Made by a program: the position numbers and the translations under genes. Below, one piece after another: positions 7,149 to 25,090 of a DNA stretch of 64,000 bases (positions within the stretch are counted from its first letter, which is position 1; each line of letters starts with the position of its first letter). Origin of the DNA: Synergistales bacterium (lineage in GTDB: Bacteria > Synergistota > Synergistia > Synergistales > JAFGMB01); contig OY762654.1 of NCBI GenBank assembly GCA_963666205.1, positions 1,696,001-1,760,000 on the forward strand, given 5' to 3'. A model generated the notes under the pieces. It was not told where the DNA came from. It searched no databases and saw nothing but the letters and a program-made list of their open reading frames with translations.

Positions 7149-8696
7149 TTAAATCAATCCCTGGAGAAATTCTAATGTTGCTGTCTTTTTTTCTCTTTTG
7201 GCTCTGTACATCATTTCATCTGCTTGCCTGAAGAGGGTCTCCAGATCATCGCAAGAGGGATATCCGTGAGAAAATCCAACCGAAAAACTGACTTGCATAT
7301 CGCTTTTCTTTTGATTGTATTCTGCCAGGTGATCAAGGAGCCTTTTCTTTAAGGATGCAACAGATTTTTTGGTACAATCAGGAATAAGAGCGGCAAATTC
7401 GTCACCGCCTATCCTGGCCAGGATATCCCCTTCTCTGAAACATCCTATAAGGATATCTGCCGTGCCCTTTATGACTCTATCTCCTGAATTGTGTCCCCTT
7501 GTGTCATTAATTTGCTTTAATCCATCAACATCACATACCATTATACAAATGCCATTCTTCATTTCGATCTGTTGAAACTGTCTTGTTTTTTCATCAAAGA
7601 ACCTGCGGTTGAAAAGCCCTGTCATAGTATCGTGAGTGTCTATGTACTCCATTTCTGCTTCTTTTTCCTTAATTATCAGGGATTTACTGCTGTTTGATAT
7701 CGCAAGTCCAATAACTCCTGCAATATCAAGGATGAAGTTCAGGTATTTAAACATATTTGCAGGAAACTGAAAATCAGCTAAATGAAGTATTCCTCTGATC
7801 TTTCCGCCCTGTTCTATTTTGACCAAAAAACCGGAATTATCGTCCAGAACCTTATATTTTTTCCTTTCTCTAAGGAAAGATGAATAGTAAACCTCCAAAG
7901 GCTCCGAAATATCTTTTCGACTGGCAGAAATATATTCAACCTTTTTACAGGAGAACAAGGTGGAAAGTTCTTCCTGTATTGTAGAAATTATTTCCGGTAC
8001 GCTTTCCTTATCAGTAAATTTCCTAATTATTTCAAAGATTTTCATGTGATCTGCAGGCTGTTTTCTGTAAAATTCATCTTCATTGGAATGATTATTATTG
8101 TTTTTCTTTAATTTCCAATCTTCATACAGATGTTGCAGAAGATCTCTAATGTAGGAATAGTCAGGTTTCATTATAGAAAAGGGAAGGTTAAGATATCGGG
8201 AAAATTCTTCCAGTTCAGGTATCACGATGTTCTCTGGTCCTTCTGATATGCAAATGATCCGGCGGGCGATTTCGCCATAAAACCGTTGAGCTCTTTCCCT
8301 TTCCCTCTCCAGACCCTTTCCCTCTATATGGTCTTTCCATCTCCGGACCCAGAGTTCTGTGATCAGATAACCTCCCTGGGCAATCAGATCCTTGACCACC
8401 GTCTTTCCCAGGAGATGGGAAAAGCAGTTATCCTGCTTTTCGACCTGAACATGTACTGCTCTTTCAATTATCGATTTAAAGGCTGGACATAAATAGCCTC
8501 CAGATATAAGAACGGAATTACCGTAATAATTTGCCATGCTTTCTGAAAAAGGATGTTCTAATCCATCATATTGATGACAGGAAATACATGGATAACTGAA
8601 GTTAATGATCTCCATATCCTGGAATTCGGGAAGAGCAATCTTCTGAAAATAGGAATGAAAACATTCACAAACAAGGATTTTCAATTTATATGCCAT
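7149..8696 (-). CDS. Diguanylate cyclase (DUF1638-like Cys-containing N-terminus + GGDEF domain)
   Basis: DTMTGLFNRR, DVDGLKQINDTRGHNSGD, RxxD I-site (REGD) and intact GGDEF; visibly AT-rich. Confidence 0.92.
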   Translation of the reverse strand: MAYKLKILVCECFHSYFQKIALPEFQDMEIINFSYPCISCHQYDGLEHPFSESMANYYGNSVLISGGYLCPAFKSIIERAVHVQVEKQDNCFSHLLGKTVVKDLIAQGGYLITELWVRRWKDHIEGKGLERERERAQRFYGEIARRIICISEGPENIVIPELEEFSRYLNLPFSIMKPDYSYIRDLLQHLYEDWKLKKNNNNHSNEDEFYRKQPADHMKIFEIIRKFTDKESVPEIISTIQEELSTLFSCKKVEYISASRKDISEPLEVYYSSFLRERKKYKVLDDNSGFLVKIEQGGKIRGILHLADFQFPANMFKYLNFILDIAGVIGLAISNSSKSLIIKEKEAEMEYIDTHDTMTGLFNRRFFDEKTRQFQQIEMKNGICIMVCDVDGLKQINDTRGHNSGDRVIKGTADILIGCFREGDILARIGGDEFAALIPDCTKKSVASLKKRLLDHLAEYNQKKSDMQVSFSVGFSHGYPSCDDLETLFRQADEMMYRAKREKKTATLEFLQGLI

Positions 8697-9952: not shown

Positions 9953-11428
9953 TTGCTGGAAACCCTCGATCTCGATAAACACCTGTCAAAAAAAGATTTC
10001 AGGAATCTTTCTGAAAAATGTCAGATCAGGCTGGGAGTTCTTCAAAGGGAATTTCGTGACCATGGTATTCCGGTTATTCTCATATTTGAGGGTCTTGGTG
10101 CTTCCGGAAAGGGCAGGCTGATAAACAATCTTCTTCTTTGCTGGGATCCCAGGGGTTTTACCTACCACTATGTCAAACTATCCCAGGAAGAAAAAGACCG
10201 TTATCCCATGCTTTATCACTACGGCAGCAGAGCTCCTGCCAGGGGAAGGATAAGCATATTCGGCAGATGCTGGTATAGGGAGATCCTGGACAGGGGCGTT
10301 GAAAAAGGATTTGAAGACCAGTTTTTCAGGGATGGCATTGTAATGGCAGATGCCTTTGAAAGGCAGCTTGCTGCAGATGGGACCCTTGTTCTCAAATTTT
10401 TTCTTCATATAGATAGAAAGGAACAGAAAAAAAGGTTAAAGGAGAGAGAAAAAGACCCGGCCAGCGCCTGGGCAGTGACTGATTATGACTGGAATCAGAA
10501 CCGTGATCACAAACAATATGTCAAGACACTCGAAACGATATTTCAGAAAACGGACAGTGAATATGCTCCATGGACAATAGTTGAGGCTACGGACTGGAGA
10601 TTTGCCACATGTAAAATTCTTTCAACGGTGGAGAATGCCATGAAAGAACGTCTTTCCGGAAAAGTACTTTCAACGCCACCCAGCACGGTCCTTCCTGAAG
10701 AAGTTTCTATGATCACGTCGGTCCTGGACAATCTTGATCTGACAAAGGATCTCATCGGCAATGAATATAAGAAAGAACTTGAAAAATCTCAGGAACTCCT
10801 CCACTCCCTTGAACTGGAGATTTTCCACAGAGGGTTACCAGTTATAACACTTTTCGAGGGAATAGATGCCGCAGGCAAGGGTGGCGCCATAAAGCGTCTT
10901 GCCCAGTGTCTCTACCCCCGGAATTATGAGGTGGTTCCCGTTGGAGCTCCAAATGAGTGGGAGCTGAACCACCATTACCTCTGGAGGTTCTGGAGAGAAC
11001 TCCCAGCCAGGGGACAGATCAAGATCTTCGACAGGAGCTGGTATGGAAGGGTCCTTGTAGAAAGGGTTGAAAACCTGGCAACACCAGAGGAATGGAAAAG
11101 AGCTTATCGCGAGATCAACGAGATGGAAGAGGATCTGGATCGTTTCGGAGCCATAATAATAAAATTCTGGCTTCAGGTTGACAGGGATGAACAGCTTGCC
11201 CGTTTTGAGGCCCGCAAGGAAGATCCTGAAAAGGAGTGGAAACTCACTGAAGAGGACTGGCGAAACCGTGAGAAGTGGGACCAGTACATGGAGGCGGCCA
11301 GGGAGATGCTCTTCCGTACAAGTACAACCTATGCTCCCTGGACAGTGGTGGAGGCAAACTCCAAGCAGTATGCAAGAATAAAGGTCCTGAAGACTTTATG
11401 CGAGGCAGTGAAGAAAGCCCTGGGATGA
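9953..11428 (+). CDS. pap: Two-domain polyphosphate kinase 2 (polyphosphate:AMP phosphotransferase)
   Basis: Two PPK2 domains (FEGLGASGKG; FEGIDAAGKGG...FDRSWYGRVLVERVE). Confidence 0.92.
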   Translation: MLETLDLDKHLSKKDFRNLSEKCQIRLGVLQREFRDHGIPVILIFEGLGASGKGRLINNLLLCWDPRGFTYHYVKLSQEEKDRYPMLYHYGSRAPARGRISIFGRCWYREILDRGVEKGFEDQFFRDGIVMADAFERQLAADGTLVLKFFLHIDRKEQKKRLKEREKDPASAWAVTDYDWNQNRDHKQYVKTLETIFQKTDSEYAPWTIVEATDWRFATCKILSTVENAMKERLSGKVLSTPPSTVLPEEVSMITSVLDNLDLTKDLIGNEYKKELEKSQELLHSLELEIFHRGLPVITLFEGIDAAGKGGAIKRLAQCLYPRNYEVVPVGAPNEWELNHHYLWRFWRELPARGQIKIFDRSWYGRVLVERVENLATPEEWKRAYREINEMEEDLDRFGAIIIKFWLQVDRDEQLARFEARKEDPEKEWKLTEEDWRNREKWDQYMEAAREMLFRTSTTYAPWTVVEANSKQYARIKVLKTLCEAVKKALG

Positions 11429-11444: not shown

Positions 11445-11547
11445 GATTGCCGATTTTAGATTTTGGATTAAAATCATCAGGTCAAAAACCAGAAACAAAA
11501 ACCAGAAACAAAAACCCTTCAGGCCGGGCAGACCATCGCCCGGCTTG
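11445..11547 (+). repeat. Array repeat copy 0 (GATTTT heptamer tract + GCCGGGC/GCCCGGC hairpin) after ppk2
   Basis: Near-identical to 14724-14825, 18744-18845, 21599-21700 and 23333-23433; carries an extra internal AAAAACCAGAAAC unit. Confidence 0.93.
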
Positions 11548-11704
11548 ATCTCTAATAAATAGTTTCTATGGGGTGTGCTTCGAAGAATCGATCTGTGACC
11601 TGAGTCCCTAAATGTTAGTCCAAATGTCCCGGCACATGAAAGAGAAATCGGGTATATTGATATCTATTATTCCTGTACTTTCTAAAAGTCGCTCAACCTT
11701 ATAT

Positions 11705-11792
11705 GAAGTAAAAGCAAAACCGTCGAAAGGCGGTGACGCAAAGCCACGGGTCTAAAGCCTCAAAAGGAAATGATCGCCGGGTTGCCGATGCA
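11705..11792 (+). promoter_or_regulatory. GEMM-I riboswitch copy 1, A20 variant (candidate 3',3'-cGAMP / GEMM-Ib type)
   Basis: GCAAAACCGTC-GAAA-GGCGGTGACGCAAAGCCACGGGTCTAA...GGGTTGCCGATG matches the c-di-GMP-I consensus; A at the position-20 equivalent (11713). Confidence 0.9.
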
Positions 11793-11816
11793 GTTCATTT
11801 GCCCTTTATGTGTATT

Positions 11817-11847
11817 ATCTCCGGGCAGAAAGGTTCGGGGATTTTTT
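11817..11847 (+). terminator. Riboswitch expression-platform intrinsic terminator (copy 1)
   Basis: ATCTCCGGG-loop-TTCGGGGAT followed by a T-tract. Confidence 0.7.
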
Positions 11848-12041
11848 ATTCTGTTTTAAAAGAACGTTATAATTCCGAGAAAAAGTATAATTTTTTGCAC
11901 ATTCTCTTCCATACTCCTGACAATTCATCACTGACAAAGTACCTGTTCAGGTTTATTTCAGGAAATTCAATTTTTCCGAAGTACGCCTGATTTTTAATTA
12001 TGATTACTTTCAAATTTTCATGAAGAGGAGATGAACTTTAA

Positions 12042-14723
12042 ATGAAAAATTTAAGAATCTTGAAGTTGTTGTTAGTTCTTTCAATTGTATTTCTTATGAG
12101 TGTTTCAACAGGATTTGCTTCTTCGCATGTAGTAACGAATCTGGATGGTGGAACGGAAGTGCCTGGTTCGCTGAGAAACATTTTGCTCTATGTCGTTCCA
12201 GGTGATTTAGTAACCTTTCCGGATGGTTTTAGCGGAACTATTAACCTTACCGGGCAGATATTTCTAACCCAGGATATTACTATTCAGGGACCCTGGGAGG
12301 GGTTGATCACTGTAAGTGGGTCTTTTATTGAACCTGCTAGTCTGATCCAGGTTGGCTATGGGGTAAATGCTCAGATATCGGGTCTTACATTTGCAAATGC
12401 AAATGCTGGAATCCAGGACGGTGCAGCGATCTCCAATGCTGGTAATCTTAGATTAACTGAATGTTCATTCCTGGGAAACCAGGCAGCTCGTGGAGGGGCA
12501 GTTTATAACGGTACAGGCTTAATTGACCCTGTGGCCTCAATGGATATTTTCGACTGCCAGTTTTGGGGCAATCAATCTGATTCCGGTGGAGCCATATATA
12601 ACGAAGGAGATCTCTCTGTAGAGAGCTGCGATTTTACCGGCAACCAGGCTCTTACCAGTGATGGTGGCGCCATATCCAACCATGGCAGCGCGTCATTAAC
12701 ATGGTGCAACCTGACCGGTAACACGATGACATCAACTTTCATGTCCGGTGGAGGTGCCATATCTAACTATGATGCCCTGGTGCTGGATTCCTGCGTGCTT
12801 GAAAACAATCAGGCCCTTAATAACCGCAATGGTGGAGCAATATACAGTTACAATGCGGAGGGCGGTACTTTCCTCAACAACTGTACTCTTAAAGGAAACA
12901 GTGCAGGTTCCGGCGGGGCCATACGAAACCAGGATGCAGAAAATTACCATAGCGAAGGGATTTCTCTAAGTCTTACAAATTGTATTTTGGAAAATAACGT
13001 GGCTCAATATGGCGGGGGGATTTACAGTAATCCCCAATATAACAAAACGATCCTCACAAACTGTATCATAGCCGGGAATACTGCAACAGTATCAGCAGGA
13101 GGCATCTCCAATGGCAACAACCAGCTTGAGATGAGAAAGTGTACAGTCAGCGGGAATATTGCCGGTTCCTCTGGTGGGGGAATATATAACTCCATTTATT
13201 CTGATAATTCTGCCTTGAGACTCTGGAACTCCACTATTACTGGAAATATTGTTTCAACTGACCAGGGAGATGGTGGTGGAGGTGCTTGTAATGTTCAAGG
13301 GACCTTCCAGACTACAAATTGTACTATTACCGGAAACTCTTCCCCTAAAGGCGGAGGATTATCATTTCTGAATGGATATGTTGTCCTGAAAAACACCATA
13401 GTAGCCTTTAACGAAGGTACCGTTTCCAGGGATATTTATGTTGATCCTTCCGGTTCTGCAGAATGTGCAATAAACAATGTTGTCAACAATCTGGTAGGAG
13501 TGGATCCTGATCCTGCTAGCTGGTTTGGCAGATCTCAAACAAATATCGTACTCTCAGGTGACATTGCCTCAACGGATGTATTTTCCGGGATCGAGGAAGG
13601 TCCCGAGGTTGGAGCTCCGGGTAATACAGAAAAAATGCAGGTTCTTGCTCTTAAGGCGGGTTCCATAGCTATTGATGCCGCACATTGGTTCGATCTTTTT
13701 GGAAAACTTGTATCAGAAGACCAGCGCGGAGTTTCCAGGCCTCAGGGAGATTATAATGACATCGGAGCTTTCGAACGTGAATTGGCAACCTACACCATAA
13801 CCGCCACTTCTTCAGCTGGAGGAACTATTTCCCCGGTATCAGCGGATGTTCCAGAGGGAATGGATCAGTCCTTCACGATAACCCCCTACGACGGTTTTGT
13901 CATAGAGGAACTTTATGCTGACAGGCAAAGAGTCGATTTTATTGCCCAGGGCGATACCTACATCTTTAATAATGTTTCGTCAAATCACGAACTTGAAGCC
14001 AGCTTTATGGTAGACCCTGCCATGATGGAAGATGCAGGGATTGAAGATTTTGGTATAACGGGAACGGACAAAGGACCCCTTGCAGACCCTGTAGCTATAA
14101 CTAAGCAGGACCTGCTTTCTATCAGTGTGGAAAAAGTGGACTTGGCTGAACTTGGTGCAGGCATACCAGAGGGGAATTTTGTGACCGGCCTTTCCTTAGA
14201 GATGGAATTTGATTCACCTGATATGGGAAATGCAGTCACCCAGGTGGATCTGGTGTTGGAAATATCCAGAGACCTTCTCGGTACAGATACATGTGCTGCC
14301 ATCGATGCAGGAGACGACCTGGAAGAGGCATTCTTTGAAAACGTGTCCCTGTATAAAATAGTTAGTCCGGATGTGTATGACCTTTTCGAAGTTGCATCAG
14401 AGGATCAGGATCCCTATGATTTCTTTGAAGTATCCAGTGATGACAGTGGTTATTATGTGTCCATGATTCTAGTCATAGCCGATGAAACTGCGCCAGAGGG
14501 AGAAGAATGCGTTCAGGCCCTTTTGGAAGGGCAGGATAGGTTCTTCTTTGTCTATGATGGAACTAAGGACGGCTGTTTCACAGATCCCATAGTGGCGGCA
14601 ATAAAAACTGCAGACGAGATTACAGAAAGCGGTACAGGCGGTGGAGGCAGCTGCAACGTGGGGACCTTACCCTCAGCATTCGGGCTTCTCATGGTGCCGT
14701 TACTCTTCCTGCTTCGCAGGTAA
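12042..14723 (+). CDS. Secreted beta-helix (Pmp-like GGAI/FxxN repeats) surface protein with Synergist-CTERM anchor
   Basis: Signal peptide; repeated N.A..GGAIYN; DQRGVSRPQG..DIGAFE; C-terminal GGGGSCNVGTLPSAFGLLMVPLLFLLRR. Confidence 0.88.
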   Translation: MKNLRILKLLLVLSIVFLMSVSTGFASSHVVTNLDGGTEVPGSLRNILLYVVPGDLVTFPDGFSGTINLTGQIFLTQDITIQGPWEGLITVSGSFIEPASLIQVGYGVNAQISGLTFANANAGIQDGAAISNAGNLRLTECSFLGNQAARGGAVYNGTGLIDPVASMDIFDCQFWGNQSDSGGAIYNEGDLSVESCDFTGNQALTSDGGAISNHGSASLTWCNLTGNTMTSTFMSGGGAISNYDALVLDSCVLENNQALNNRNGGAIYSYNAEGGTFLNNCTLKGNSAGSGGAIRNQDAENYHSEGISLSLTNCILENNVAQYGGGIYSNPQYNKTILTNCIIAGNTATVSAGGISNGNNQLEMRKCTVSGNIAGSSGGGIYNSIYSDNSALRLWNSTITGNIVSTDQGDGGGGACNVQGTFQTTNCTITGNSSPKGGGLSFLNGYVVLKNTIVAFNEGTVSRDIYVDPSGSAECAINNVVNNLVGVDPDPASWFGRSQTNIVLSGDIASTDVFSGIEEGPEVGAPGNTEKMQVLALKAGSIAIDAAHWFDLFGKLVSEDQRGVSRPQGDYNDIGAFERELATYTITATSSAGGTISPVSADVPEGMDQSFTITPYDGFVIEELYADRQRVDFIAQGDTYIFNNVSSNHELEASFMVDPAMMEDAGIEDFGITGTDKGPLADPVAITKQDLLSISVEKVDLAELGAGIPEGNFVTGLSLEMEFDSPDMGNAVTQVDLVLEISRDLLGTDTCAAIDAGDDLEEAFFENVSLYKIVSPDVYDLFEVASEDQDPYDFFEVSSDDSGYYVSMILVIADETAPEGEECVQALLEGQDRFFFVYDGTKDGCFTDPIVAAIKTADEITESGTGGGGSCNVGTLPSAFGLLMVPLLFLLRR

Positions 14724-15313: not shown

Positions 15314-15787
15314 ATGAAAAGATACAGAATTGCCGTGGTACTGGTATTTTTATTCTGTCTTTGCGGCACTTCCTTCGGAGCGCTATCTTCTGCAATCAAC
15401 CCTAATCCTTCGAATGGGGCTATCGGAATTAACCGTGAGGGTCTTGTAATTGACTGGGACTGTAGTGAGTTCGGAACCTTCGATCTTTTCTTCGGGACCT
15501 CTCCGGGCGACCTTCTTCTTATTGCTGAAGACCTTGCATCTGCCGTCTACTTTGATCTTGATACTCTCGATCCTGAAACGACCTACTATTGGCGGGTGGA
15601 TGTGGTATCTTCTGACACTATTACTACGGTTACAGGGGATATCTGGAATTTCACCACATGGGCTTCGGCGCCTGACGACGATGATGACGATAGCGGTGGA
15701 GGAGGCGGAGGCGGCTGCAACACTGGTTTGATACCCGCAGCATTCGGATCTCTGCTGGTGCCCTTGATGTTCCTGCTGAGGAAATAG
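15314..15787 (+). CDS. Small secreted FN3-like domain protein with Synergist-CTERM anchor
   Basis: Signal peptide; LDPETTYYWRVDV...GDIWNFTT; acidic/Gly linker; CNTGLIPAAFGSLLVPLMFLLRK. Confidence 0.85.
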   Translation: MKRYRIAVVLVFLFCLCGTSFGALSSAINPNPSNGAIGINREGLVIDWDCSEFGTFDLFFGTSPGDLLLIAEDLASAVYFDLDTLDPETTYYWRVDVVSSDTITTVTGDIWNFTTWASAPDDDDDDSGGGGGGGCNTGLIPAAFGSLLVPLMFLLRK

Positions 15788-15897: not shown

Positions 15898-16056
15898 TTG
15901 ATGTTTTTAGCTATTTTCCAGATGTTAAATAGCTGAAGCTCAATCTGTGACCTGAGTCCCTAAATGTTAGTCCATATGTCCCGGCACATGAAAGAAAAAT
16001 CGGGTATATTAATATGAATTATTTCTGTACTTTCTATAAATCATTCAACTTTATAT

Positions 16057-16144
16057 TCAGCAAGGGCAAAACCGTCGAAAGACGGTGACGCAAAGCCACG
16101 GGTCTAAAGCCTCAAAAGGAAATGATCGCCGGGTTGCCGATGCA
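16057..16144 (+). promoter_or_regulatory. c-di-GMP-I (GEMM-I) riboswitch copy 2
   Basis: AAGGGCAAAACCGTC-GAAA-GACGGTGACGCAAAGCC...GTTGCCGATG; G20 at 16065; terminator-like hairpin at about 16169-16198. Confidence 0.93.
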
Positions 16145-16397
16145 GTTCATTTGCCCTTTATGAGTATTATCTCCGGGCAGAAAACCAGGGGATTTTTATT
16201 AACCTGTGTTGAAAGGAGGAGAAAATTACCCTGAAATTAAGCAAAGTTCCCCTGCAGGAGAAAGATGATCGAGAGAAGAAAATCTTTACGAAAATAATGT
16301 TGGAATCCATATGATGTTATCCCTGTCTTGATTTACCAGGTCAGTAATTATTTGTCATTAAAAAATCAGATTTAGTTGCAAAGGAGATGGACTTGAG

Positions 16398-18743
16398 ATG
16401 ATGAATTTTAGAACTGTGAAGTTGTTATTAGCTCTTGTAATTGTATTTTTTGTTGGTATTTCAGCAGGATGGGCTGATACACTTACTGTAACAAACTCCT
16501 CCGATTCTGGAGCAGGATCCCTGAGACAAGCAATTGCTGATGCAGCTGAGGGAGATACTATAGATTTTAGCAGTGATTTAGAGAGTATCACCCTGTCTGG
16601 AACGCTGGTTATAAGCAAAAACATCACCATTATGGGATCCGGTGCTGGCACCCTTTCCATCAATGGGGGTGGCAACTGCAGGATATTTGAGATCGAGAGT
16701 GGAGCCTCAGTTGATATTTCCAACCTTTCCGTAGTAAGCGGTGATGCGACAGTATATGCAAGAGGTAAGAATGGCGGAGGGATATTGTTAGGGAACAATG
16801 CTGCACTCAGCTTGAATGGCTGTACCTTTGAAGATTGCAGGGCCAGACTTGGCGGAGCTATTACCTGCGTAAATGGAAGCAGTACTAATATTGAAAACTG
16901 CACTTTCAAAAACAATGAAGCTGTTGGAGATGCAAACAGTATCCCAACAGAAGGTTACGGTGGCGGGATCTATACTGGCGCAAACAGCGCCTCTTTAACC
17001 TACCTTTCTGTAACTGATTCAAATTTTTACGGCAATAAAGCCAGGGATTACGGTGGCGGTATTTACAATATCAGGGACTCAAATGCTACTGTTACAAACT
17101 GCAATTTCAGCGAAAACACTGCCGGAGTTAACGGCGGCGGTATTTGGAATTACTCAGAAAGTCTAACCCTTTCCGGATGTACCTTCAGCAATAATAGTGT
17201 AACTGATGGGGGTGGCGGAATATATAATGTTTCTCCAGGTCTTGCCGTGCTCCTGAACTGTACTATTACACGCAATATAGCCTCATCAGAAGATGGAAAT
17301 GGGGGCGGGGGGATTTACAATAGATCCGGGTACCTTAAAATCTCAAACTGTACTATTTCCGATAATTATTCTCCTAAAGGTGCCGGGATATCGGGTAGGG
17401 ATGGTACCGTTGCCCTGAAAAATACCATAATCGCCTTTAACAATGGTGAAGTTTCCAGAGATGTTTATATTATTCCTGGTGGTTCCTGTGTATATGGTAA
17501 TGGCTCAGGTTACAACCTTGCAGGAAACGTTCCTGAAAGCTGGTTCATGAATTATGGGGATATCATCCTCTCTGCCGATATTACCTCATCCGATGTTTTT
17601 TCAGGTTTAGAAAACGGTCCTGAAGCCGGTGCTCCTGGGGATACAGAAAAAATGCAGGTACTTGCACTGAAGGCTGGGGCATTGGCGGTGGAGGCAGCCC
17701 ATTGGTTCGACCTCCGTGAACAATTAGTTTCCGAAGACCAGCGCGGTGTATCAAGGCCCCAGGGATATTACAATGACATAGGTGCTTTCGAGCTTGAGCT
17801 TGCATCCTATTCCATAACCACCTCCTCTACTTCCGGCGGCGGAAGCATTTCTCCCGAGTCAGCGGATGTTCCAGAGGGAATGGATCAGTCCTTCACGATA
17901 ACCCCCTACGACGGTTTTGTCATAGAGGAACTTAATGCTGACAGGCAAAGAGTCGATTTTATTGCCCAGGGCGATACCTACATCTTTAATAATGTTTCGT
18001 CAGACCATGAACTTGAAGCCAGCTTTATGGTAGACCCTGCCATGATGGAAGAAGCAGGGATTGAAGATTTTGGTATAACGGGAACGGACAAAGGACCCCT
18101 TGCAGACCCGGTAACTATCACTAAGCAGGACCTGCTTTCTATCAGTGTGGAAAAAGTGGACTTGGCTGAACTTGGTGCAGGCATACCAGAGGGGAATTTT
18201 GTGACCGGCCTTTCCTTCGAGATGGAATTTGATTCACCCGATATGGGAAATGCAGTCACCCAGGTGGATCTGGTGTTGGAAATATCCAGAGACCTTCTCG
18301 GTACAGATACATGTGCTGCCATCGATGCAGGAGACGACCTGGAAGAGGCATTCTTTGAAAACGTGTCCCTGTATAAAATAGTTAGTCCGGATGTGTATGA
18401 CCTTTTCGAAGTTGCATCAGAGGATCAGGATCCCTATGATTTCTTTGAAGTATCCAGTGATGACAGTGGTTATTATGTGTCCATGATTCTAGTCATAGCC
18501 GATGAAGCTGCGCCAGAGGGAGAAGCATGCGTTCAGGCCCTTTTGGAAGGGCAGGATAGGTTCTTCTTTGTCTATGATGGAACTAAGGACGGCTGTTTCA
18601 CAGATCCCATAGTGGCGGCAATAAAAACTGCAGACGAGATTACAGAAAGCGGTACAGGCGGTGGAGGCAGCTGCAACGTGGGGACCTTACCCTCAGCATT
18701 CGGGCTTCTCATGGTGCCGTTACTCTTCCTGCTTCGCAGGTAA
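16398..18743 (+). CDS. Secreted beta-helix surface protein with Synergist-CTERM anchor (paralog of 12042..14723)
   Basis: VTNSSDSGAGSLRQAI N-terminus, GGGIYN repeats, C-terminal about 290 aa nearly identical to the paralog. Confidence 0.88.
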   Translation: MMNFRTVKLLLALVIVFFVGISAGWADTLTVTNSSDSGAGSLRQAIADAAEGDTIDFSSDLESITLSGTLVISKNITIMGSGAGTLSINGGGNCRIFEIESGASVDISNLSVVSGDATVYARGKNGGGILLGNNAALSLNGCTFEDCRARLGGAITCVNGSSTNIENCTFKNNEAVGDANSIPTEGYGGGIYTGANSASLTYLSVTDSNFYGNKARDYGGGIYNIRDSNATVTNCNFSENTAGVNGGGIWNYSESLTLSGCTFSNNSVTDGGGGIYNVSPGLAVLLNCTITRNIASSEDGNGGGGIYNRSGYLKISNCTISDNYSPKGAGISGRDGTVALKNTIIAFNNGEVSRDVYIIPGGSCVYGNGSGYNLAGNVPESWFMNYGDIILSADITSSDVFSGLENGPEAGAPGDTEKMQVLALKAGALAVEAAHWFDLREQLVSEDQRGVSRPQGYYNDIGAFELELASYSITTSSTSGGGSISPESADVPEGMDQSFTITPYDGFVIEELNADRQRVDFIAQGDTYIFNNVSSDHELEASFMVDPAMMEEAGIEDFGITGTDKGPLADPVTITKQDLLSISVEKVDLAELGAGIPEGNFVTGLSFEMEFDSPDMGNAVTQVDLVLEISRDLLGTDTCAAIDAGDDLEEAFFENVSLYKIVSPDVYDLFEVASEDQDPYDFFEVSSDDSGYYVSMILVIADEAAPEGEACVQALLEGQDRFFFVYDGTKDGCFTDPIVAAIKTADEITESGTGGGGSCNVGTLPSAFGLLMVPLLFLLRR

Positions 18744-18845: not shown

Positions 18846-18990
18846 TTGCACTAAATAACTTTTATTTCAATCCATGGATCTGGGACCTGAGTCCTGAAAT
18901 GTTGAGACATAAGTCCCGATAAAAGATTACAAAATACGATATAGTGAGAACTGTTATAGCTTTTATCTGAAAAGTCACCCAACTTTATAT

Positions 18991-19078
18991 TCAGCAAGGG
19001 CAAAACCGCCGAAAGGCGGTGACGCAAAGCCACGGGTCTAAAGCCTCAAAAGGAAATGATCGCCGGGTTGCCGATGCA
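18991..19078 (+). promoter_or_regulatory. c-di-GMP-I riboswitch copy 3
   Basis: P2 CCGCC-GAAA-GGCGG; G20 at 18999; terminator ATCTCCGG...CCGGGGAT-TTT at 19103-19133. Confidence 0.93.
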
Positions 19079-19276
19079 GTTCATTTGCCCTTTATGAGTA
19101 TTATCTCCGGGCAGAAAGATCCGGGGATTTTGTTATTTACAGGTGTTTCTCTAATTGAATTCTCAACCATTTTCTAATTGAGGAGAGGTTCATCCTGTCC
19201 ATATCTTTTGAGAGTTGAAGATCTGATATTTGAATCATTACATAATTCCATACTTTTTCTAAAAAGGAGAGATACC

Positions 19277-21598
19277 ATGTTGATGAGAAGACTTAGTATT
19301 GCACTGGCCATGATATTGCTGTTTTCATTCTCCGCATTTGCAGTTGAGATGAGTGTTGAAACCGTTGATGAAGGAAGTACCCAGGGCTACAGCTCTTCCC
19401 TTGCAATTGATGAGGACGGTAACCCCCACATATCTTTTAAAGCAGATTCACAGATCCTCAAGTATGCTTATTTCGATGGAGATGAATGGGTTACACAGAA
19501 CGTGGTGGAGGGATCTAGTTATATTAACCAGACCTCAATCGCCCTGGATTCAGAAGGAAACCCATGTATTGCCTTTCAGAGAGGCGCCTATCCCGACAGC
19601 TCTGTAATGTTCACATCCTTCAACGGCAGCATCTGGGAGACAGTATCAGTTGATCAGGGTTACTCCGGTACGGGAAATACCCTCTCCCTCGCATTCGACA
19701 ATAACGGTGATCCGGGTATTGCTTATACTTATTACGATCAGGAGGATTCATCTGTTCTCAGGTTCGCAAAAAGGGAAAATGGCTCCTGGTCTCGGGATAC
19801 CGTTAATTCCGACGACCATTCTTATTCAAACAAATGCACCCTTGCATTCAGCAGTACAGGTGTGCCCTTCATAGGTTATGGATATTTTACTGATACCTAT
19901 GGAGATACCTGTAATATGTATTATTCATGGCTCGATGAGAATACCGCTCAGTGGCAGATGGAGTTAGTAGACGATCCTATGACCAAAACGGCTTATCAAA
20001 CTTCCACCATGGCTCTTGATACCAACGATAATCCTCACTTCGTTTATTCTGCCAATGATGACGACTCTCTTAGATATGCATTCAAAAATGGAGAAAGTTT
20101 TTCTTTTTTGACTGTTGAAAACGCAGACAGGATTGGACACTACTCATCCCTTGTAATTGATGATGAAAACGTTCCCCATCTTGCATACTGTGCTTTTTCG
20201 GGCGAAAGTGACCTGAAATATGGAGTTCTTCAGGGAAATTCATGGGTAACAAGTGTTGCCGATTCCCAGGGTGATGTGGGAACCTTCCCCTCTATAGCTC
20301 TTGATCCGTCGGGCAATCCCTGTGTCAGTTATCTCGAAGCAGATGATTATGACCTTCAGTATGCCTGTAAAAATGGACAGGAATGGGATGTGCAGACCGT
20401 TCCCATCGAGGGAAAGAGAAGAGGTTCCTGCCCCGAGATAGCCCTGAATTCAAAGGGTGAGCCCAGCCTGGTCTATATGCTTCAGGATACAAGAGCCATG
20501 CTGTTTGCCTCAAAGGATGGAAACGAATGGGAAAGATCCACAATAATTTCCTTCGAAGACCTGGACTCGGGCCATTATTTAAGGGATCCTTCCTACATTA
20601 TCGATGAAGATGATAATGATCATCTGCTTTTTGTATCAGACGATGTGCTTACATATGCGGTAAGGACAACTGATGCATGGGACTTTGAATCCATATCTTC
20701 CGATATTGAGTGCTGGGAATGTGATCTTGCTATGGATAGTTCAGTATGTCCCCATGCTGCTTTTAATATGAGTGAATATCTTGTTATTCCCAGCGGAATG
20801 TCCTCCTCTGCACAGTACACAAGCAATCTGTGGTACGGCACAAAGATCGATTCGGGCTGGGAATTTGAGAGAATTGACATCGGGCGGGTGGATAATATCG
20901 ATATGGTTCTTTCTGAAGATGAAAAAGCCTTCATATGCTATTTCGAAGATAACGAAGATGAGTTGAAGTATTGTGTTCAGAACGAGGTCAGTTGGGACAT
21001 TGGTGTAGTTTCTTCAGATCTGAGGGATGTCCATTCTCTTTCCCTCGAAATGGATTCCTCCGGCATTCCTCACCTGGCCTTTATTTCAACGAATCAGACT
21101 TCCGAAAGTGTTCCACTCAGAGAATCTGAAGTCGTAAGTTATTCGTATACATTGAACCATGCCATATTCTCTGGCAATGATTGGATCATTGAGAAAGTAG
21201 ATGATCTGAAATTTAGTGGAGGTGTAAGGCAGATCAAAATGGTCTTTGACTCCCTTGATAATCCTCAGATAGTATACGGGACAGGTTCTTTCGGGATGCA
21301 GGGGGGAACCGATTCTGACATTAAGGCTGAATTACGATACGCCTGGTTTGACGGTGAGTCCTGGAACAAGGTGATGCTGGATGAAAATTACCTTACCTCC
21401 TTTGCGTCATATTCCACTGTGGTCCTCAATTCAAATGATGTGCCTCACATAGCATATTTCACCGGCACAGGTTTGAATTATGGTACTTTAACATTCGAGG
21501 ATGTTGCAACCGGTGGCGGCAGCACCTGTAACGTGGGGGTCTTCCCGGCAGCATTCGGGCTTCTGATGGTACCGTTACTCTTCCTGCTGCGCAGGTAA
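19277..21598 (+). CDS. Secreted acidic repeat protein (probable beta-propeller) with Synergist-CTERM anchor
   Basis: AGGAG RBS before ATG 19277; signal peptide; more than 10 repeats of S(I/L)ALDxxGNP(H/C)IxY...L.YA...W; CTERM tail. Confidence 0.85.
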   Translation: MLMRRLSIALAMILLFSFSAFAVEMSVETVDEGSTQGYSSSLAIDEDGNPHISFKADSQILKYAYFDGDEWVTQNVVEGSSYINQTSIALDSEGNPCIAFQRGAYPDSSVMFTSFNGSIWETVSVDQGYSGTGNTLSLAFDNNGDPGIAYTYYDQEDSSVLRFAKRENGSWSRDTVNSDDHSYSNKCTLAFSSTGVPFIGYGYFTDTYGDTCNMYYSWLDENTAQWQMELVDDPMTKTAYQTSTMALDTNDNPHFVYSANDDDSLRYAFKNGESFSFLTVENADRIGHYSSLVIDDENVPHLAYCAFSGESDLKYGVLQGNSWVTSVADSQGDVGTFPSIALDPSGNPCVSYLEADDYDLQYACKNGQEWDVQTVPIEGKRRGSCPEIALNSKGEPSLVYMLQDTRAMLFASKDGNEWERSTIISFEDLDSGHYLRDPSYIIDEDDNDHLLFVSDDVLTYAVRTTDAWDFESISSDIECWECDLAMDSSVCPHAAFNMSEYLVIPSGMSSSAQYTSNLWYGTKIDSGWEFERIDIGRVDNIDMVLSEDEKAFICYFEDNEDELKYCVQNEVSWDIGVVSSDLRDVHSLSLEMDSSGIPHLAFISTNQTSESVPLRESEVVSYSYTLNHAIFSGNDWIIEKVDDLKFSGGVRQIKMVFDSLDNPQIVYGTGSFGMQGGTDSDIKAELRYAWFDGESWNKVMLDENYLTSFASYSTVVLNSNDVPHIAYFTGTGLNYGTLTFEDVATGGGSTCNVGVFPAAFGLLMVPLLFLLRR

Positions 21599-21700: not shown

Positions 21701-21845
21701 TTGCACTAAATAACTTCTATTTCAACCCATGGATCTGGGACCTGAGTCCTGAAATGTTGAGACATAAGTCCCGATAAAAGATTACAAAATACGATATAGT
21801 GATATCTGTTATAGCTTTTATCTGAAAAGTCACCCAACTTTATAT

Positions 21846-21933
21846 TCAGCAAGGGCAAAACCGTCGAAAGGCGGTGACGCAAAGCCACGGGTCTAAAGCC
21901 TCAAAAGGAAATGATCGCCGGGTTGCCGATGCA
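21846..21933 (+). promoter_or_regulatory. c-di-GMP-I riboswitch copy 4
   Basis: Consensus aptamer with G20 at 21854; perfect terminator ATCTCCGGG-CAGAAAA-CCCGGAGAT-TTTTT at 21958-21987. Confidence 0.93.
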
Positions 21934-22135
21934 GTTCATTTGCCCTTTATGAGTATTATCTCCGGGCAGAAAACCCGGAGATTTTTTGTTTGAGGAGAAC
22001 AATTTCTCTAATGGAATTCAGAATAGATTTTCACATTTTCCCGGGAGGTGGTCGGAACAACTTGTTTTTTAAGGGATGGAGCTTTATTTCAGTTAAATTA
22101 AACCTTTCATAAACTTTTATAAGGAGAGATGAATA

Positions 22136-23332
22136 ATGAAAAGATTAAGTATTTTCCTTGTCCTGTTATTCTGCATGTTCTGTATTTGCGGCACCTCCTT
22201 TGGATATGTGGTCTACTCCGAGGATTTTGAGGCTTTGGATGGAGGATATATCCATAGCGGGACTGGAGATTGCTGGCAATGGGGAACCCCGACAGCATGG
22301 CCCAATGCAGCGGCTTCAGGCACGAATTGCTGGGGAACCAATCTGGCTGGCAACTATGCGAACAACGCAAATTTCTCTCTTGTTTCGGGCTGGATAGATC
22401 TTACTGCCTACCCGGCAGGGACACCACTGACCCTCAAATGGAAACAGGCCCTGGACATAGAAAGCTCAACCTGGGACAACGCTTCCTGCTCGGGTGAAAC
22501 CGATGTCCCTGAGACTGAAATTTTTTGGCAGCACAGTGGGAGTAGCATTACTTACGGCTGGACAGAGGTTTCTGCTGACATCTCCTTCGCTGCAGGTAAA
22601 CAGTTCAGGTTAACCTGGAGATTTTCTACTGACGGCAGTATTACATACGACGGTCTTTTTATCGATGATGTGATGATCGAAGTCTCAATATCCCCAGCTA
22701 CGGATCCTGATCCGGAAGATGGTTCCAGCGGCAATTCATACGAAGATCCTGTCCTTTCCTGGGTATGTGAATCGGCTGACTCTTTCGACCTGTATTTCGG
22801 AACCGCCTTGGATGATCTTGACCTGATCTCTGAAGATATGACAGTGACCTCCTGCGACCTGCCCCTTCTTGAGCAGGGTACAACCTATTACTGGCGGGTG
22901 GATGTCGCATCTGGAGATATAGCTGTATCTGGAGACCTGTGGTCCTTCACTACCCTCCTGGAGAAACCGGCTTCCCCGGATCCCTCGAACGGAGCGGATG
23001 ATGCAGTAAATGCGGATGTAGTCCTCTCCTGGGAGCATCTTTCAGATAACGTTTCTTTCGATGTCTATTTCGGACTGACTTCGGATGATATGGAAGTCCT
23101 TGCGACCGGGATCTCTGAAGGATCGGTGGTTTTAGAGGATGATCTGGATTTCCTAACTGAATATTTCTGGAGAGTTGATGTCAGGACAGAAGATGCAGCG
23201 GAATCCGGAGACCTCTGGAGCTTTACCACAGCGGATGAGAGGGTGTCTGGTAGTGGAGGATGCAACGCCGGTTCAATACCGGCAGCATTCGGGCTTCTCA
23301 TGGTACCGTTACTCTTCCTGCTTCGCAGGTAA
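22136..23332 (+). CDS. Secreted protein: jelly-roll (MAM/cleaved-adhesin-like) domain + two FN3-like domains + Synergist-CTERM anchor
   Basis: WQWGTP..CWGTNLAGNY..FIDDV; two YxWRVDV...GDLWSFTT repeats; CTERM tail. Confidence 0.83.
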   Translation: MKRLSIFLVLLFCMFCICGTSFGYVVYSEDFEALDGGYIHSGTGDCWQWGTPTAWPNAAASGTNCWGTNLAGNYANNANFSLVSGWIDLTAYPAGTPLTLKWKQALDIESSTWDNASCSGETDVPETEIFWQHSGSSITYGWTEVSADISFAAGKQFRLTWRFSTDGSITYDGLFIDDVMIEVSISPATDPDPEDGSSGNSYEDPVLSWVCESADSFDLYFGTALDDLDLISEDMTVTSCDLPLLEQGTTYYWRVDVASGDIAVSGDLWSFTTLLEKPASPDPSNGADDAVNADVVLSWEHLSDNVSFDVYFGLTSDDMEVLATGISEGSVVLEDDLDFLTEYFWRVDVRTEDAAESGDLWSFTTADERVSGSGGCNAGSIPAAFGLLMVPLLFLLRR

Positions 23333-23491: not shown

Positions 23492-25090
23492 TCACGATTG
23501 AGGAAGTACTTCCACTTTGACTTCGAAATTTTCTCCGAAGGTTTTTTTAAAGAACTTCTGCTGGTTCTCCAGGGCCCAGAGCTCTATTTCATAACCCTCA
23601 AGGGCCTTTATATTCAACACAAGTCTTCGGGCGTGACGAGAAAACCATGCCTCCTGTATCAACTGATGATGACTGCGGTCAAGGCTTTCTGCTATTGACA
23701 GGAGCATGCTCAGTACCTTTACCGTTTCCCTGGATCGTGGATCAAGGCCTGAAAACTCCGGATGTTTGTTCCTGGGGTATTTTCTGCTGTGATAAAAGGC
23801 GGTGCTGGCCATTATTGCTATCTCACGGGAATAAAAGCCAAGAAGCTCCGCATTTCTGATGATGTAATAGGTATGGGCGTGGTGGTTGACGAAGGAGAGG
23901 AACATTCCCACATCATGGAGCATGGCAGAATATCTGAGAAGTTCTCCCTCTTCATCCCCTAGACTGTGAAGCGCCGATTCCCGGCCACTTTCGAACAACT
24001 GGACTGCCAGTCTCGAAATATGCCGGCCATGGGTTTCGTTGAAACCGCAGCTCCTTCCAAGCTGGAGAACGCTCTGTTCGCGCACTGATATCCGAGGTTT
24101 GGCTTCAAGATAGCCGTATTTCCCCCGGATAAGGTAATCATGTAGCAGTCCGTGTCTCAGGTTTCGTCGGCTTATATGGATCTCCTCAAGTCCCATCTCC
24201 TCCATCAGGGTGTGAAGGATTGCGGCACCTGGAATGATAATGTCGGCCCTCCGGGGGTTCATTCCGCGGACCTTTGCAAGATCCTGCAAAGAAAGTGAAC
24301 ATAACAGTTTTACGGTATTGTCAAGTTCCTGGAGAGAGAGTACTTCCTGCCCCTCCTCGACATCGATTCGCTTTCCCTGGATATTGTTGCGCCTGGCTAT
24401 TTCATAAAGTGTCTCGATGGTCCCCGAGCTGCCTATTGCAAGGTGGGATTCCGTATCCCTGAACCGCTGTATGCTTCTGAGAGCGGAATTGCGGACATGC
24501 TGCTGAAGCAGGTCATAATTATCCATATGAACGGGGCCCTGATCTTCTTCAGGAAAGAACATGTTCTTCAGCCTTACCGCGCCGAGTTTCATGGAATCCA
24601 GGGAAAAGTATTCGAACTGATTTCCCAGAATTGTTTCTGTACTTCCTCCGCCGATGTCCAGAAACATGGCAGTTTTATCCCCGAGATGAAATCCGCTTGA
24701 TACACCCAGGTATATGAGCCGCGCTTCCTCGAGGCCCGAAATGACATTCAGATCAAGGTCTGCTTCGTTCTTTACCCTGTCAATAAACTCATCCCGATTC
24801 TGGGCATCCCTGGTTGCGGATGTTGCAACTGCCCACAGGTCTTTTGCGCCCAGGTTGGCGGACATCTCGACAAAACGCTTCAAGACCAGTATGGTACGGT
24901 CCATGGCTTCCTTGCGGAGCACACCCCGGGTGAACTCCCCTTCTCCAAGGCGTACCATGACCTTATGCTGGTTAATGATGGTATATGATCGATTGGGGTT
25001 GAGGCGGACCACCATAAGTCTGACGGAGTTTGTTCCCAGGTCGATGAGTCCTACCACGTTCCCCGATTCCACATTCAGATTTGGTCCCAC
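23492..25090 (-). CDS. ppx: Exopolyphosphatase Ppx/GppA
   Basis: IDLGTNSVRL, ATSATRDA, DIGGGSTE and C-terminal LHDVG HD domain. Confidence 0.95.
   Translation of the reverse strand: MGPNLNVESGNVVGLIDLGTNSVRLMVVRLNPNRSYTIINQHKVMVRLGEGEFTRGVLRKEAMDRTILVLKRFVEMSANLGAKDLWAVATSATRDAQNRDEFIDRVKNEADLDLNVISGLEEARLIYLGVSSGFHLGDKTAMFLDIGGGSTETILGNQFEYFSLDSMKLGAVRLKNMFFPEEDQGPVHMDNYDLLQQHVRNSALRSIQRFRDTESHLAIGSSGTIETLYEIARRNNIQGKRIDVEEGQEVLSLQELDNTVKLLCSLSLQDLAKVRGMNPRRADIIIPGAAILHTLMEEMGLEEIHISRRNLRHGLLHDYLIRGKYGYLEAKPRISVREQSVLQLGRSCGFNETHGRHISRLAVQLFESGRESALHSLGDEEGELLRYSAMLHDVGMFLSFVNHHAHTYYIIRNAELLGFYSREIAIMASTAFYHSRKYPRNKHPEFSGLDPRSRETVKVLSMLLSIAESLDRSHHQLIQEAWFSRHARRLVLNIKALEGYEIELWALENQQKFFKKTFGENFEVKVEVLPQS

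Follow-up and report, generated by a model that had tools for sequence, protein, structure and literature searches.

We analysed a stretch of 64,000 nucleotides (nt) from the genome of a Synergistales bacterium (assembly GCA_963666205.1, contig OY762654.1, positions 1,696,001 to 1,760,000 of the forward strand), here called the window, with positions counted from its first letter. The window contains four sibling riboswitches of the GEMM-I family, each located 5' of a gene for a protein that looks secreted. The first, copy 1, carries an adenine at the ligand-contacting position that corresponds to G20 of the Vc2 aptamer (A20). On balance, and by analogy with published A20 aptamers, copy 1 is probably a working switch that responds to cyclic di-GMP (c-di-GMP) with a shifted threshold and is bispecific in vitro. 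The physiological ligand would be c-di-GMP, because, of the recognised ligands of the GEMM-I fold, it is the only one with a recognisable synthase in the genome. The switch is expected to control transcription of gene P1, which encodes a secreted cell-surface beta-helix protein, through an intrinsic terminator.

The copy 1 aptamer and its ligand-contacting base

A cmscan search of the whole window returned four full-length matches to RF01051 (c-di-GMP-I), all on the forward strand and scoring 82.3–85.7 bits against a gathering score of 35. The output gives the best match per clan, and four lower-scoring matches of the same clan in the window are hidden by it. The four aptamers and the pocket positions of copy 1 are as follows.

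11703–11789, + strand: copy 1 aptamer (A20), GEMM-I / c-di-GMP-I fold, 5' of gene P1 (RF01051, 82.3 bits, model positions 1–87, no insertions or deletions)
11712–11713, + strand: equivalents of positions 19 and 20, A19 and A20, in copy 1 (cmscan alignment); 11713 is the ligand-contacting position
11740, + strand: equivalent of A47, the intercalating adenine, unchanged (model position 38)
11785, + strand: equivalent of C92, the Watson-Crick partner of G-beta, unchanged (model position 83)
16055–16141, + strand: copy 2 aptamer (G20), 5' of gene P2 (RF01051, 85.7 bits)
18989–19075, + strand: copy 3 aptamer (G20), 5' of gene P3 (RF01051, 85.7 bits)
21844–21930, + strand: copy 4 aptamer (G20), 5' of gene P4 (RF01051, 84.5 bits)

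Copy 1 reads GTAAAAGCAAAA, whereas copies 2–4 read GCAAGGGCAAAA (cmscan and alignment). The ligand-contacting base is model position 11, which is unpaired, immediately precedes the opening G-C of the first hairpin, and is A in copy 1 and G in copies 2–4. Model position 10 is also A in copy 1, and A is the Rfam consensus there. Both adenines had been noticed in a preliminary description of this DNA and are confirmed by the alignment, the one at position 19 as a consensus base. That description had also reported A47 and C92 as unchanged, at 11740 and 11786, respectively. Both bases are indeed unchanged and A47 lies where it was placed, but the C92 equivalent is 11785; positions 11785 and 11786 are both C in all four copies. 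Apart from the anchoring pair, Vc2 position numbers are mapped onto copy 1 as we take them to correspond. The offset of 9 between the two numberings was anchored on the C44/G83 inter-helix pair, as given in PMC3764141, and on the Rfam structure line.

The remainder of the aptamer is well preserved. Copies 1 and 2 are distinguished by six of the 87 modelled positions (11705, 11706, 11709, 11712, 11713 and 11730), and between 11714 and 11810 the only variation among the four copies is in the two partners of one compensated base pair in the P2 hairpin. The GAAA (GNRA) tetraloop on the first hairpin, the CAAA junction and the CC that follows P3 are present in copy 1, the same as in its siblings. 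Copy 1 shows the score and the full-model coverage of an RF01051 member and lacks the G at position 20 that pairs with G-alpha of the ligand. Judged by sequence, copy 1 amounts to the scaffold of its siblings with a natural G20A change.

The consequences of this change are documented in known riboswitches. According to Keller 2018 (PMC6140456), G20 contacts G-alpha of c-di-GMP, and in A20 aptamers the adenine of 3',3'-cyclic GMP-AMP (cGAMP) takes the place of G-alpha. An A at this position is the mark of GEMM-Ib riboswitches (Keller 2018; Hallberg 2019, PMC6456294), as the preliminary description had stated for both points, and copy 1 carries this defining base. Keller 2018 describes that c-di-GMP still binds A20 aptamers, via an N1-protonated adenine. 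The affinities given there for Vc2 G20A are 53 nM for c-di-GMP and 120 nM for cGAMP, the wild type being picomolar for c-di-GMP; those for Cbe 1-2, a natural A20 aptamer from Clostridium beijerinckii, are 30 nM and 463 nM, respectively. The same source calls bispecific binding widespread among A20 members. By analogy with Vc2 G20A and Cbe 1-2, A20 is expected to lower the affinity of copy 1 for c-di-GMP from picomolar to tens of nanomolar, the ligand being bound via protonated adenine, and to let 3',3'-cGAMP bind in vitro.

Cyclic dinucleotide synthases encoded in the genome

The genome (G000) is a single contig of 2.95 Mb that is 100% complete. It encodes ten GGDEF domains (PF00990), and all ten have Asp at the position where Hypr enzymes have Ser or Thr. 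This position was located 24 residues before GG[DE]EF and 9 after the conserved Asn, in agreement with the Ser348/Asn339/Asp374 geometry in Hallberg 2019 (PMC6456294). Four relatives that also have A20 aptamers, the congener G001 and the genomes G002–G004, show the same picture: PF00990 has 36 matches there, a regular expression could read 28 of the 30 that were fetched, and each of these 28 has Asp. The SMODS domain (PF18144) has no match in these five genomes; the control for this search was positive, with matches in five genomes. One DAC domain was found in G000, so cyclic di-AMP (c-di-AMP) can be made. Within the reach of known families, the dinucleotides on offer in G000 thus appear to be c-di-GMP and c-di-AMP. 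A cGAMP synthase in the same cell, the physiological requirement of GEMM-Ib signalling, was not found in G000 within the families searched.

The expression platform

A G+C-rich hairpin followed by a T-run lies within about 30 nt 3' of each of the four aptamers. The elements that flank the copy 1 aptamer are as follows.

11590–11702, + strand: conserved region upstream of the aptamer, common to the sibling leaders, presumed promoter and 5' leader
11798–11806, + strand: switch segment TTTGCCCTT, with two alternative predicted pairings (RNAduplex and constrained folds)
11817–11848, + strand: intrinsic terminator (terminator scan), stem-loop at 11817–11842 followed by the T-run

The terminator stem is backed by compensatory changes among nine leaders (RNAalifold). 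The upstream region is 89% identical to that of copy 2 and 92% identical to that of the G001 RS3 leader, which is also the leader closest to that of copy 1 overall (87% over 261 nt).

The switch segment UUUGCCCUU is predicted to pair with the 5' strand of the aptamer (positions 17–25), which is AAGGGCAAA in copies 2–4 and AAAAGCAAA in copy 1. The computed energy of this anti-aptamer duplex is −19.9 kcal/mol for copies 2–4 and −9.0 kcal/mol for copy 1, the change from GG to AA at positions 19–20 taking two G-C pairs out of the predicted helix. The same segment can alternatively pair with GGGCAGA, the 5' arm and loop of the terminator, at −11.6 kcal/mol in all four copies, and it does so in every copy when the aptamer is enforced in constrained folds. 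For transcripts ending just past the switch segment, the aptamer-competent fold is worse than the sequestered one by 7.6 kcal/mol in copies 2–4 and by 0.4 kcal/mol in copy 1. The GCCC and GGGC on which the second pairing is built are kept in eight of nine sibling leaders, and the ninth, G001 RS4, is altered on both sides.

These folds suggest an ON switch. The aptamer, when held by its ligand, would leave the switch segment free to pair with the 5' arm of the terminator, with read-through as the result; without ligand, the segment would pair with the aptamer strand and the terminator would form. The anti-aptamer helix would thus compete with aptamer formation, and copy 1, with two G-C pairs lost from that helix, would need much less binding energy. 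By our own arithmetic, the affinity loss expected from G20A is about 4–5 kcal/mol, assuming a wild-type dissociation constant near 10 pM, and would be similar in size to the drop of the barrier. As a net result, P1 would differ from its paralogue P2 in its c-di-GMP threshold or would show more basal read-through.

Two further structures emerged from the leader alignment. A small hairpin near the 5' end, GAC-CUGA-GUC, is invariant in all nine leaders. RNAalifold also proposed a helix of 5 base pairs between positions 15–19 and UUUGC of the switch segment; as a ligand-bound P1 stem it was rejected, with 13 nt looped out after C92.

Occurrence and persistence of A20

A20 is a minority state but a widespread one, and it is rare in the phylum outside the bacterial family of G000. 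The genome has 16 aptamers above threshold and two below, and A20 occurs in 2 of the 17 that can be scored, namely copy 1 and an aptamer with a long insert at C1:885018 (− strand). Across five genomes of the family, A20 is found in 7 of 66 scorable aptamers (G000 2/17, G001 2/18, G002 1/12, G003 1/13, G004 1/6), a count that leaves out one truncated match in G003 and one degenerate match in G000. A single strict 18-base pattern gave five A-type matches (in four genomes) against 91 G-type matches (in 39 genomes) among 268 genomes of the phylum, and four of the five A-type matches fall in this same family. When searched across all species genomes, the strict A-type pattern yielded at least 119 stretches; among the matches listed are Clostridia, Bacilli, Izemoplasmatales, Chloroflexota, Bacteroidales, Gammaproteobacteria and others. 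Rfam assigned 18 of 20 A-type loci, hand-picked for taxonomic spread, to the GEMM-I clan (16 to RF01051 and 2 to RF03167).

The cluster is syntenic in the congener G001, where the order is PPK2, riboswitch, Q1, riboswitch, Q2, riboswitch, Q3, riboswitch, Q4. Q1 is 56% identical to the P1 protein over the full length, and Q3 is 47% identical to P3. The first riboswitch of that cluster (L049:6962-7048, which is G001:C4:227961-228047) is the positional orthologue of copy 1. It combines A20 with U at the C92 position, keeps A47, scores 75.6 bits for RF01051 and is located upstream of the intact P1 orthologue of 864 amino acids (aa). An engineered Vc2 double mutant of this kind, G20A/C92U, has reportedly been found to bind c-di-AMP. 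G001 RS3 has A20 together with C92.

The A20 state has persisted in the leader lineage of copy 1 despite homogenisation within the genome, which is evident from seven alignment columns with G000-specific states common to all four copies. This concerted evolution has homogenised the aptamer cores of the four leaders (11590–11860, 15942–16225, 18876–19160 and 21731–22015). The upstream 110 nt, by comparison, fall into two types, one in copies 1 and 2 and the other in copies 3 and 4, each of which is closer to its congener counterpart than to the other type.

Copy 1 shows no decay, with its aptamer, its terminator and its gene all intact, and the simple decay that the preliminary description had offered as an alternative does not fit. 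What real decay looks like in this family is shown by a fifth sibling leader elsewhere in the genome (C1:1557543; L017:1380-1720, or G000:C1:~1557420-1557760), in which a deletion of about 30 nt has taken away the pocket strand together with the entire first hairpin (P2), leaving P3, the TTTGCCC segment and the terminator in place. Downstream of it is an orthologue of G001 Q5 (74% identity over 428 aa), and the Q5 riboswitch itself is intact. If the ON model is right, the gene 3' of this broken leader would be permanently terminated or dependent on another input.

Alternative explanations

Several observations weigh against a c-di-GMP-responsive ON switch with a shifted threshold. The ligand and the affinities of copy 1 are taken over solely by analogy, and some A20 aptamers, those of Geobacter, are strongly selective for cGAMP. 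Keller 2018 (PMC6140456) leaves unresolved which determinants beyond A20, possibly the P1 stem, set selectivity, and the selectivity of copy 1 is thus unreadable from its sequence. The synthase search spans known families, and two of its results, the absence of matches to DncV-like (PF21654) and Mab-21 (PF03281) domains in G000, are weak negatives, with controls positive in no genome. The ON model is thermodynamic guesswork. In full-length folds the terminator hairpin is part of the minimum-energy structure in both states, so that any switching must be kinetic. The predicted anti-aptamer helix is weak in all five congener leaders (−5.3 to −11.5 kcal/mol), with A20 or G20 alike. The promoter is a further weak point, as the scan gave a single site, at 11447–11474, which scored no better than shuffled sequences, and nothing convincing in 11590–11702.

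The alternative that survives best is that the variant is neutral, and that copy 1 answers c-di-GMP just as its siblings do, with A20 and its neighbours representing drift or a relic missed by gene conversion. GEMM-I switches are described as kinetically controlled in Keller 2018 (PMC6140456), and under such control a loss of equilibrium affinity would have no regulatory consequence. The changed patch (11705–11713) coincides with the 5' edge of the tract that homogenisation has made uniform in the four copies. The changes specific to copy 1 are clustered, with 5 of 19 differences in 9 of 244 columns (permutation p ~0.02, columns 2–245), and at that edge they could be the relic of an older leader type and not a selected change; both G001 RS5 and the degenerate fifth copy share the ATGAAG motif of the patch. 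Moreover, G and A alternate at position 20 among the nine leaders with no clear link to gene type, as G001 RS3 has A20 and its counterpart, G000 RS3, has G20. Against neutrality, both the closest leader lineage and the positional orthologue retain A20 in a congener in which orthologous proteins share just 47–56% identity with those of G000. In addition, the same change costs the predicted competing helix about 11 kcal/mol, a loss that, provided the helix is real, should probably have consequences. We consider a neutral variant unlikely on these grounds.

A second possibility is that copy 1 is a 3',3'-cGAMP sensor of the GEMM-Ib type in vivo, with P1 and P2 wired to different messengers and cGAMP supplied by an unrecognised synthase. 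The defining base is present, and the reverse change, A20G, makes a Geobacter cGAMP switch respond to c-di-GMP instead (Hallberg 2019, PMC6456294). A20 also recurs in the family, including four of six members of a subclass with a long insert, and is rare in the rest of the phylum, and the first copy of the congener has gone further towards adenine recognition, with U at the C92 position in addition to A20. The preliminary description had gone from A20 to cGAMP signalling, and had named Hypr GGDEF and CD-NTase genes as the ones to look for. That step is not supported. The search produced no Hypr GGDEF domain among the ten of G000 or the 28 readable ones of its four relatives and, in the families covered, no SMODS, DncV-like or Mab-21 match. 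The scaffold is that of the c-di-GMP siblings, the natural equivalent of a G20A point mutant that is bispecific and not cGAMP-selective, and the natural A20 aptamer Cbe 1-2 prefers c-di-GMP (Keller 2018, PMC6140456). A20 aptamers are, furthermore, found in many phyla for which there is no description of riboswitch-based cGAMP signalling. A dedicated cGAMP sensor is, in our view, highly unlikely; the promiscuity that the preliminary description had named as another option agrees better with the bispecific binding of published A20 aptamers.

A broader version of the same idea is that the sibling leaders of the genus form a natural allelic series retuned towards adenine-containing dinucleotides, running from G20/C92 through A20/C92 (copy 1 and G001 RS3) to A20/U92. 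Copy 1 would then sense cGAMP made by an unrecognised synthase family, and the A20/U92 form would sense c-di-AMP made via DAC, a domain found in G000. Such a series needs a selectivity unseen in published single G20A changes, as well as an enzyme that no search found, and we give it little credence.

Loss of function, with A20 and the altered 5' strand of the P1 stem crippling the sensor and gene P1 being constitutive or permanently terminated, is very improbable. In its favour are the altered pocket base, a C16-to-U change that makes one pair of the P1 stem weaker, and a ViennaRNA prediction, with the aptamer enforced, of a P1 stem of three base pairs for copies 2–4 and none for copy 1. Against it, aptamer and platform are otherwise conserved down to single bases, the P1-stem duplex energies are alike (−3.4 versus −3.2 kcal/mol), G20A mutants and natural A20 aptamers bind ligand tightly (Keller 2018, PMC6140456), A20 leaders persist in two species, and real decay among the siblings takes the form of the 30-nt deletion.

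Genes and surroundings of the cluster

The genes of the cluster and its flanks are listed below.

7149–8696, − strand: GGDEF protein of 515 aa, located 3 kb upstream of the cluster and syntenic in G001 (L049:2431-3963), with the canonical Asp at the Hypr position
9953–11428, + strand: PPK2, left flank of the cluster
12042–14723, + strand: P1, the regulated gene, 893 aa, beta-helix/PMP repeats, choice-of-anchor Q domain and a Synerg-CTERM-like tail
16398–18743, + strand: P2, 781 aa, Beta_helix (PF13229), 3' of copy 2
19178–21598, + strand: P3, BNR_4, coordinates of the listed open reading frame (ORF); likely start at 19283
22136–23332, + strand: P4, 398 aa, InhA-like MAM, 3' of copy 4
23492–25090, − strand: Ppx/GppA, right flank of the cluster

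The N-terminus of the P1 protein resembles a signal peptide. P1 and P2 are 70.8% identical over 674 aa, and the near-identical C-termini noted for these two paralogues in the preliminary description are in fact identical over the last 70 residues, which suggests a recent gene conversion. The likely start of P3 is based on residue 36 of the listed frame, which aligns with residue 1 of G001 Q3. All four proteins, otherwise different secreted proteins, end in a near-identical tail of 25 aa, ...GGGxCNxG..FGLLMVPLLFLLRR, that is composed of a Gly-rich part, a Cys, a hydrophobic helix and RR. This tail resembles the Synerg-CTERM sorting signal. When searched with the Synerg-CTERM model (TIGR04564), P4 was the sole match, at 17.6 bits and below the cut-off of 22.5.

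The adhesin-like cluster is framed by polyphosphate genes (PPK2 and Ppx/GppA), with the GGDEF protein and a metallophosphoesterase just upstream. The left-hand part of this arrangement, comprising GGDEF, phosphoesterase and PPK2, is syntenic in the congener. An ORF of 157 aa between P1 and copy 2 (15314–15787, + strand) has no Pfam match and overlaps an ORF of 162 aa on the opposite strand; it may not be a gene.

Contigs of RNA libraries from two marine-sediment studies match parts of the P1 ORF, as a record of occurrence that gives no starts, ends or levels. One contig of 218 nt covers 11699–11903 with 16 differences, and no contig informs on position 11713.

Other GEMM-I aptamers

The subclass with a long insert comprises six members of about 140 nt, with some 50 extra nt in the second hairpin, all of them outside the window.

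G000:C1:2072718-2072855, − strand: long-insert GEMM-I aptamer
G000:C1:885018-885117, − strand: long-insert GEMM-I aptamer
G001:C8:269065: long-insert GEMM-I aptamer
G002:C50:7889: long-insert GEMM-I aptamer
G003:C243:647: long-insert GEMM-I aptamer
G004:C11:19123: long-insert GEMM-I aptamer

The P1 stem of this subclass is a palindrome, CCUUUAAAGG, followed by a U-run in five of the six, and from its sequence the closed aptamer looks like a terminator in its own right, that is, an OFF design. Four of the six have a TATAAT-like box immediately upstream, and four of the six have A20. The G000 copy at 885018 (− strand) is without a U-run, and no downstream gene of at least 150 aa was found for it.

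Tandem GEMM-I aptamers spaced by about 140–150 nt were seen in other families of the same order (L021, L023, L026, L028–L030 and others), all with G20. The genome G027 has three in tandem, at C5:94535, 94676 and 94817.

Significance

A20-type GEMM-I aptamers are common and often bispecific, and copy 1 is an ordinary member of a known subclass. Its value lies in the comparison with copy 2. The two form a natural minimal pair with a shared promoter-side sequence, aptamer core and terminator and with paralogous genes, and of the six aptamer positions at which they differ, five are clustered at the pocket and the 5' strand of the P1 stem. Together with the A20/U92 copy of the congener, which is the most interesting lead outside the window, the pair makes the determinants of selectivity beyond A20 testable on one scaffold. 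The pocket strand doubles as an arm of the predicted competing helix, which suggests a way of coupling a single pocket base to the expression platform. A discovery of cGAMP in this phylum would take cGAMP signalling by riboswitches well beyond Geobacter.

Comparison with known systems

The GEMM-Ib riboswitches described from Geobacter (Gs1761/pgcA, Gmet_0970 and pilM) share A20 with copy 1 and are transcriptional ON switches with terminators located 5' of extracellular or surface functions. They differ in being cGAMP-selective (~1200-fold for pgcA) and in working together with the Hypr GGDEF enzyme GacA (Ser348), whereas G000 is without a Hypr GGDEF domain. In pilM, as described, the aptamer and terminator folds are mutually exclusive, whereas the terminator of copy 1 is a separate hairpin. 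In Cd1 of Clostridioides difficile (Landgraf 2022), as predicted for copy 1, the aptamer is compatible with a terminator that is complete in itself, and the outcome depends on a third pairing that competes with them. Cd1 is an OFF switch with an antiterminator formed from the 3' strand of the aptamer, whereas copy 1 is predicted to use the 5' pocket strand and to be an ON switch.

For ligand recognition the best parallels are two A20 aptamers. Vc2 G20A (3MUM and 4YB1, as cited in Keller 2018) is, like copy 1, a c-di-GMP scaffold with G changed to A at the G-alpha contact and with A47 and C92 kept. It is an engineered and isolated aptamer, whereas copy 1 is natural, has four more changes in the 5' strand of the P1 stem and at position 19, and is joined to a terminator platform. 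Cbe 1-2 (Nelson 2015, as cited and measured in Keller 2018) comes from another phylum, has other flanks than copy 1 and is not known to belong to a sibling series built on a single scaffold. It is, like copy 1, a natural A20 aptamer from outside Geobacter, and its reported bispecific binding, with a preference for c-di-GMP, is the behaviour predicted for copy 1.

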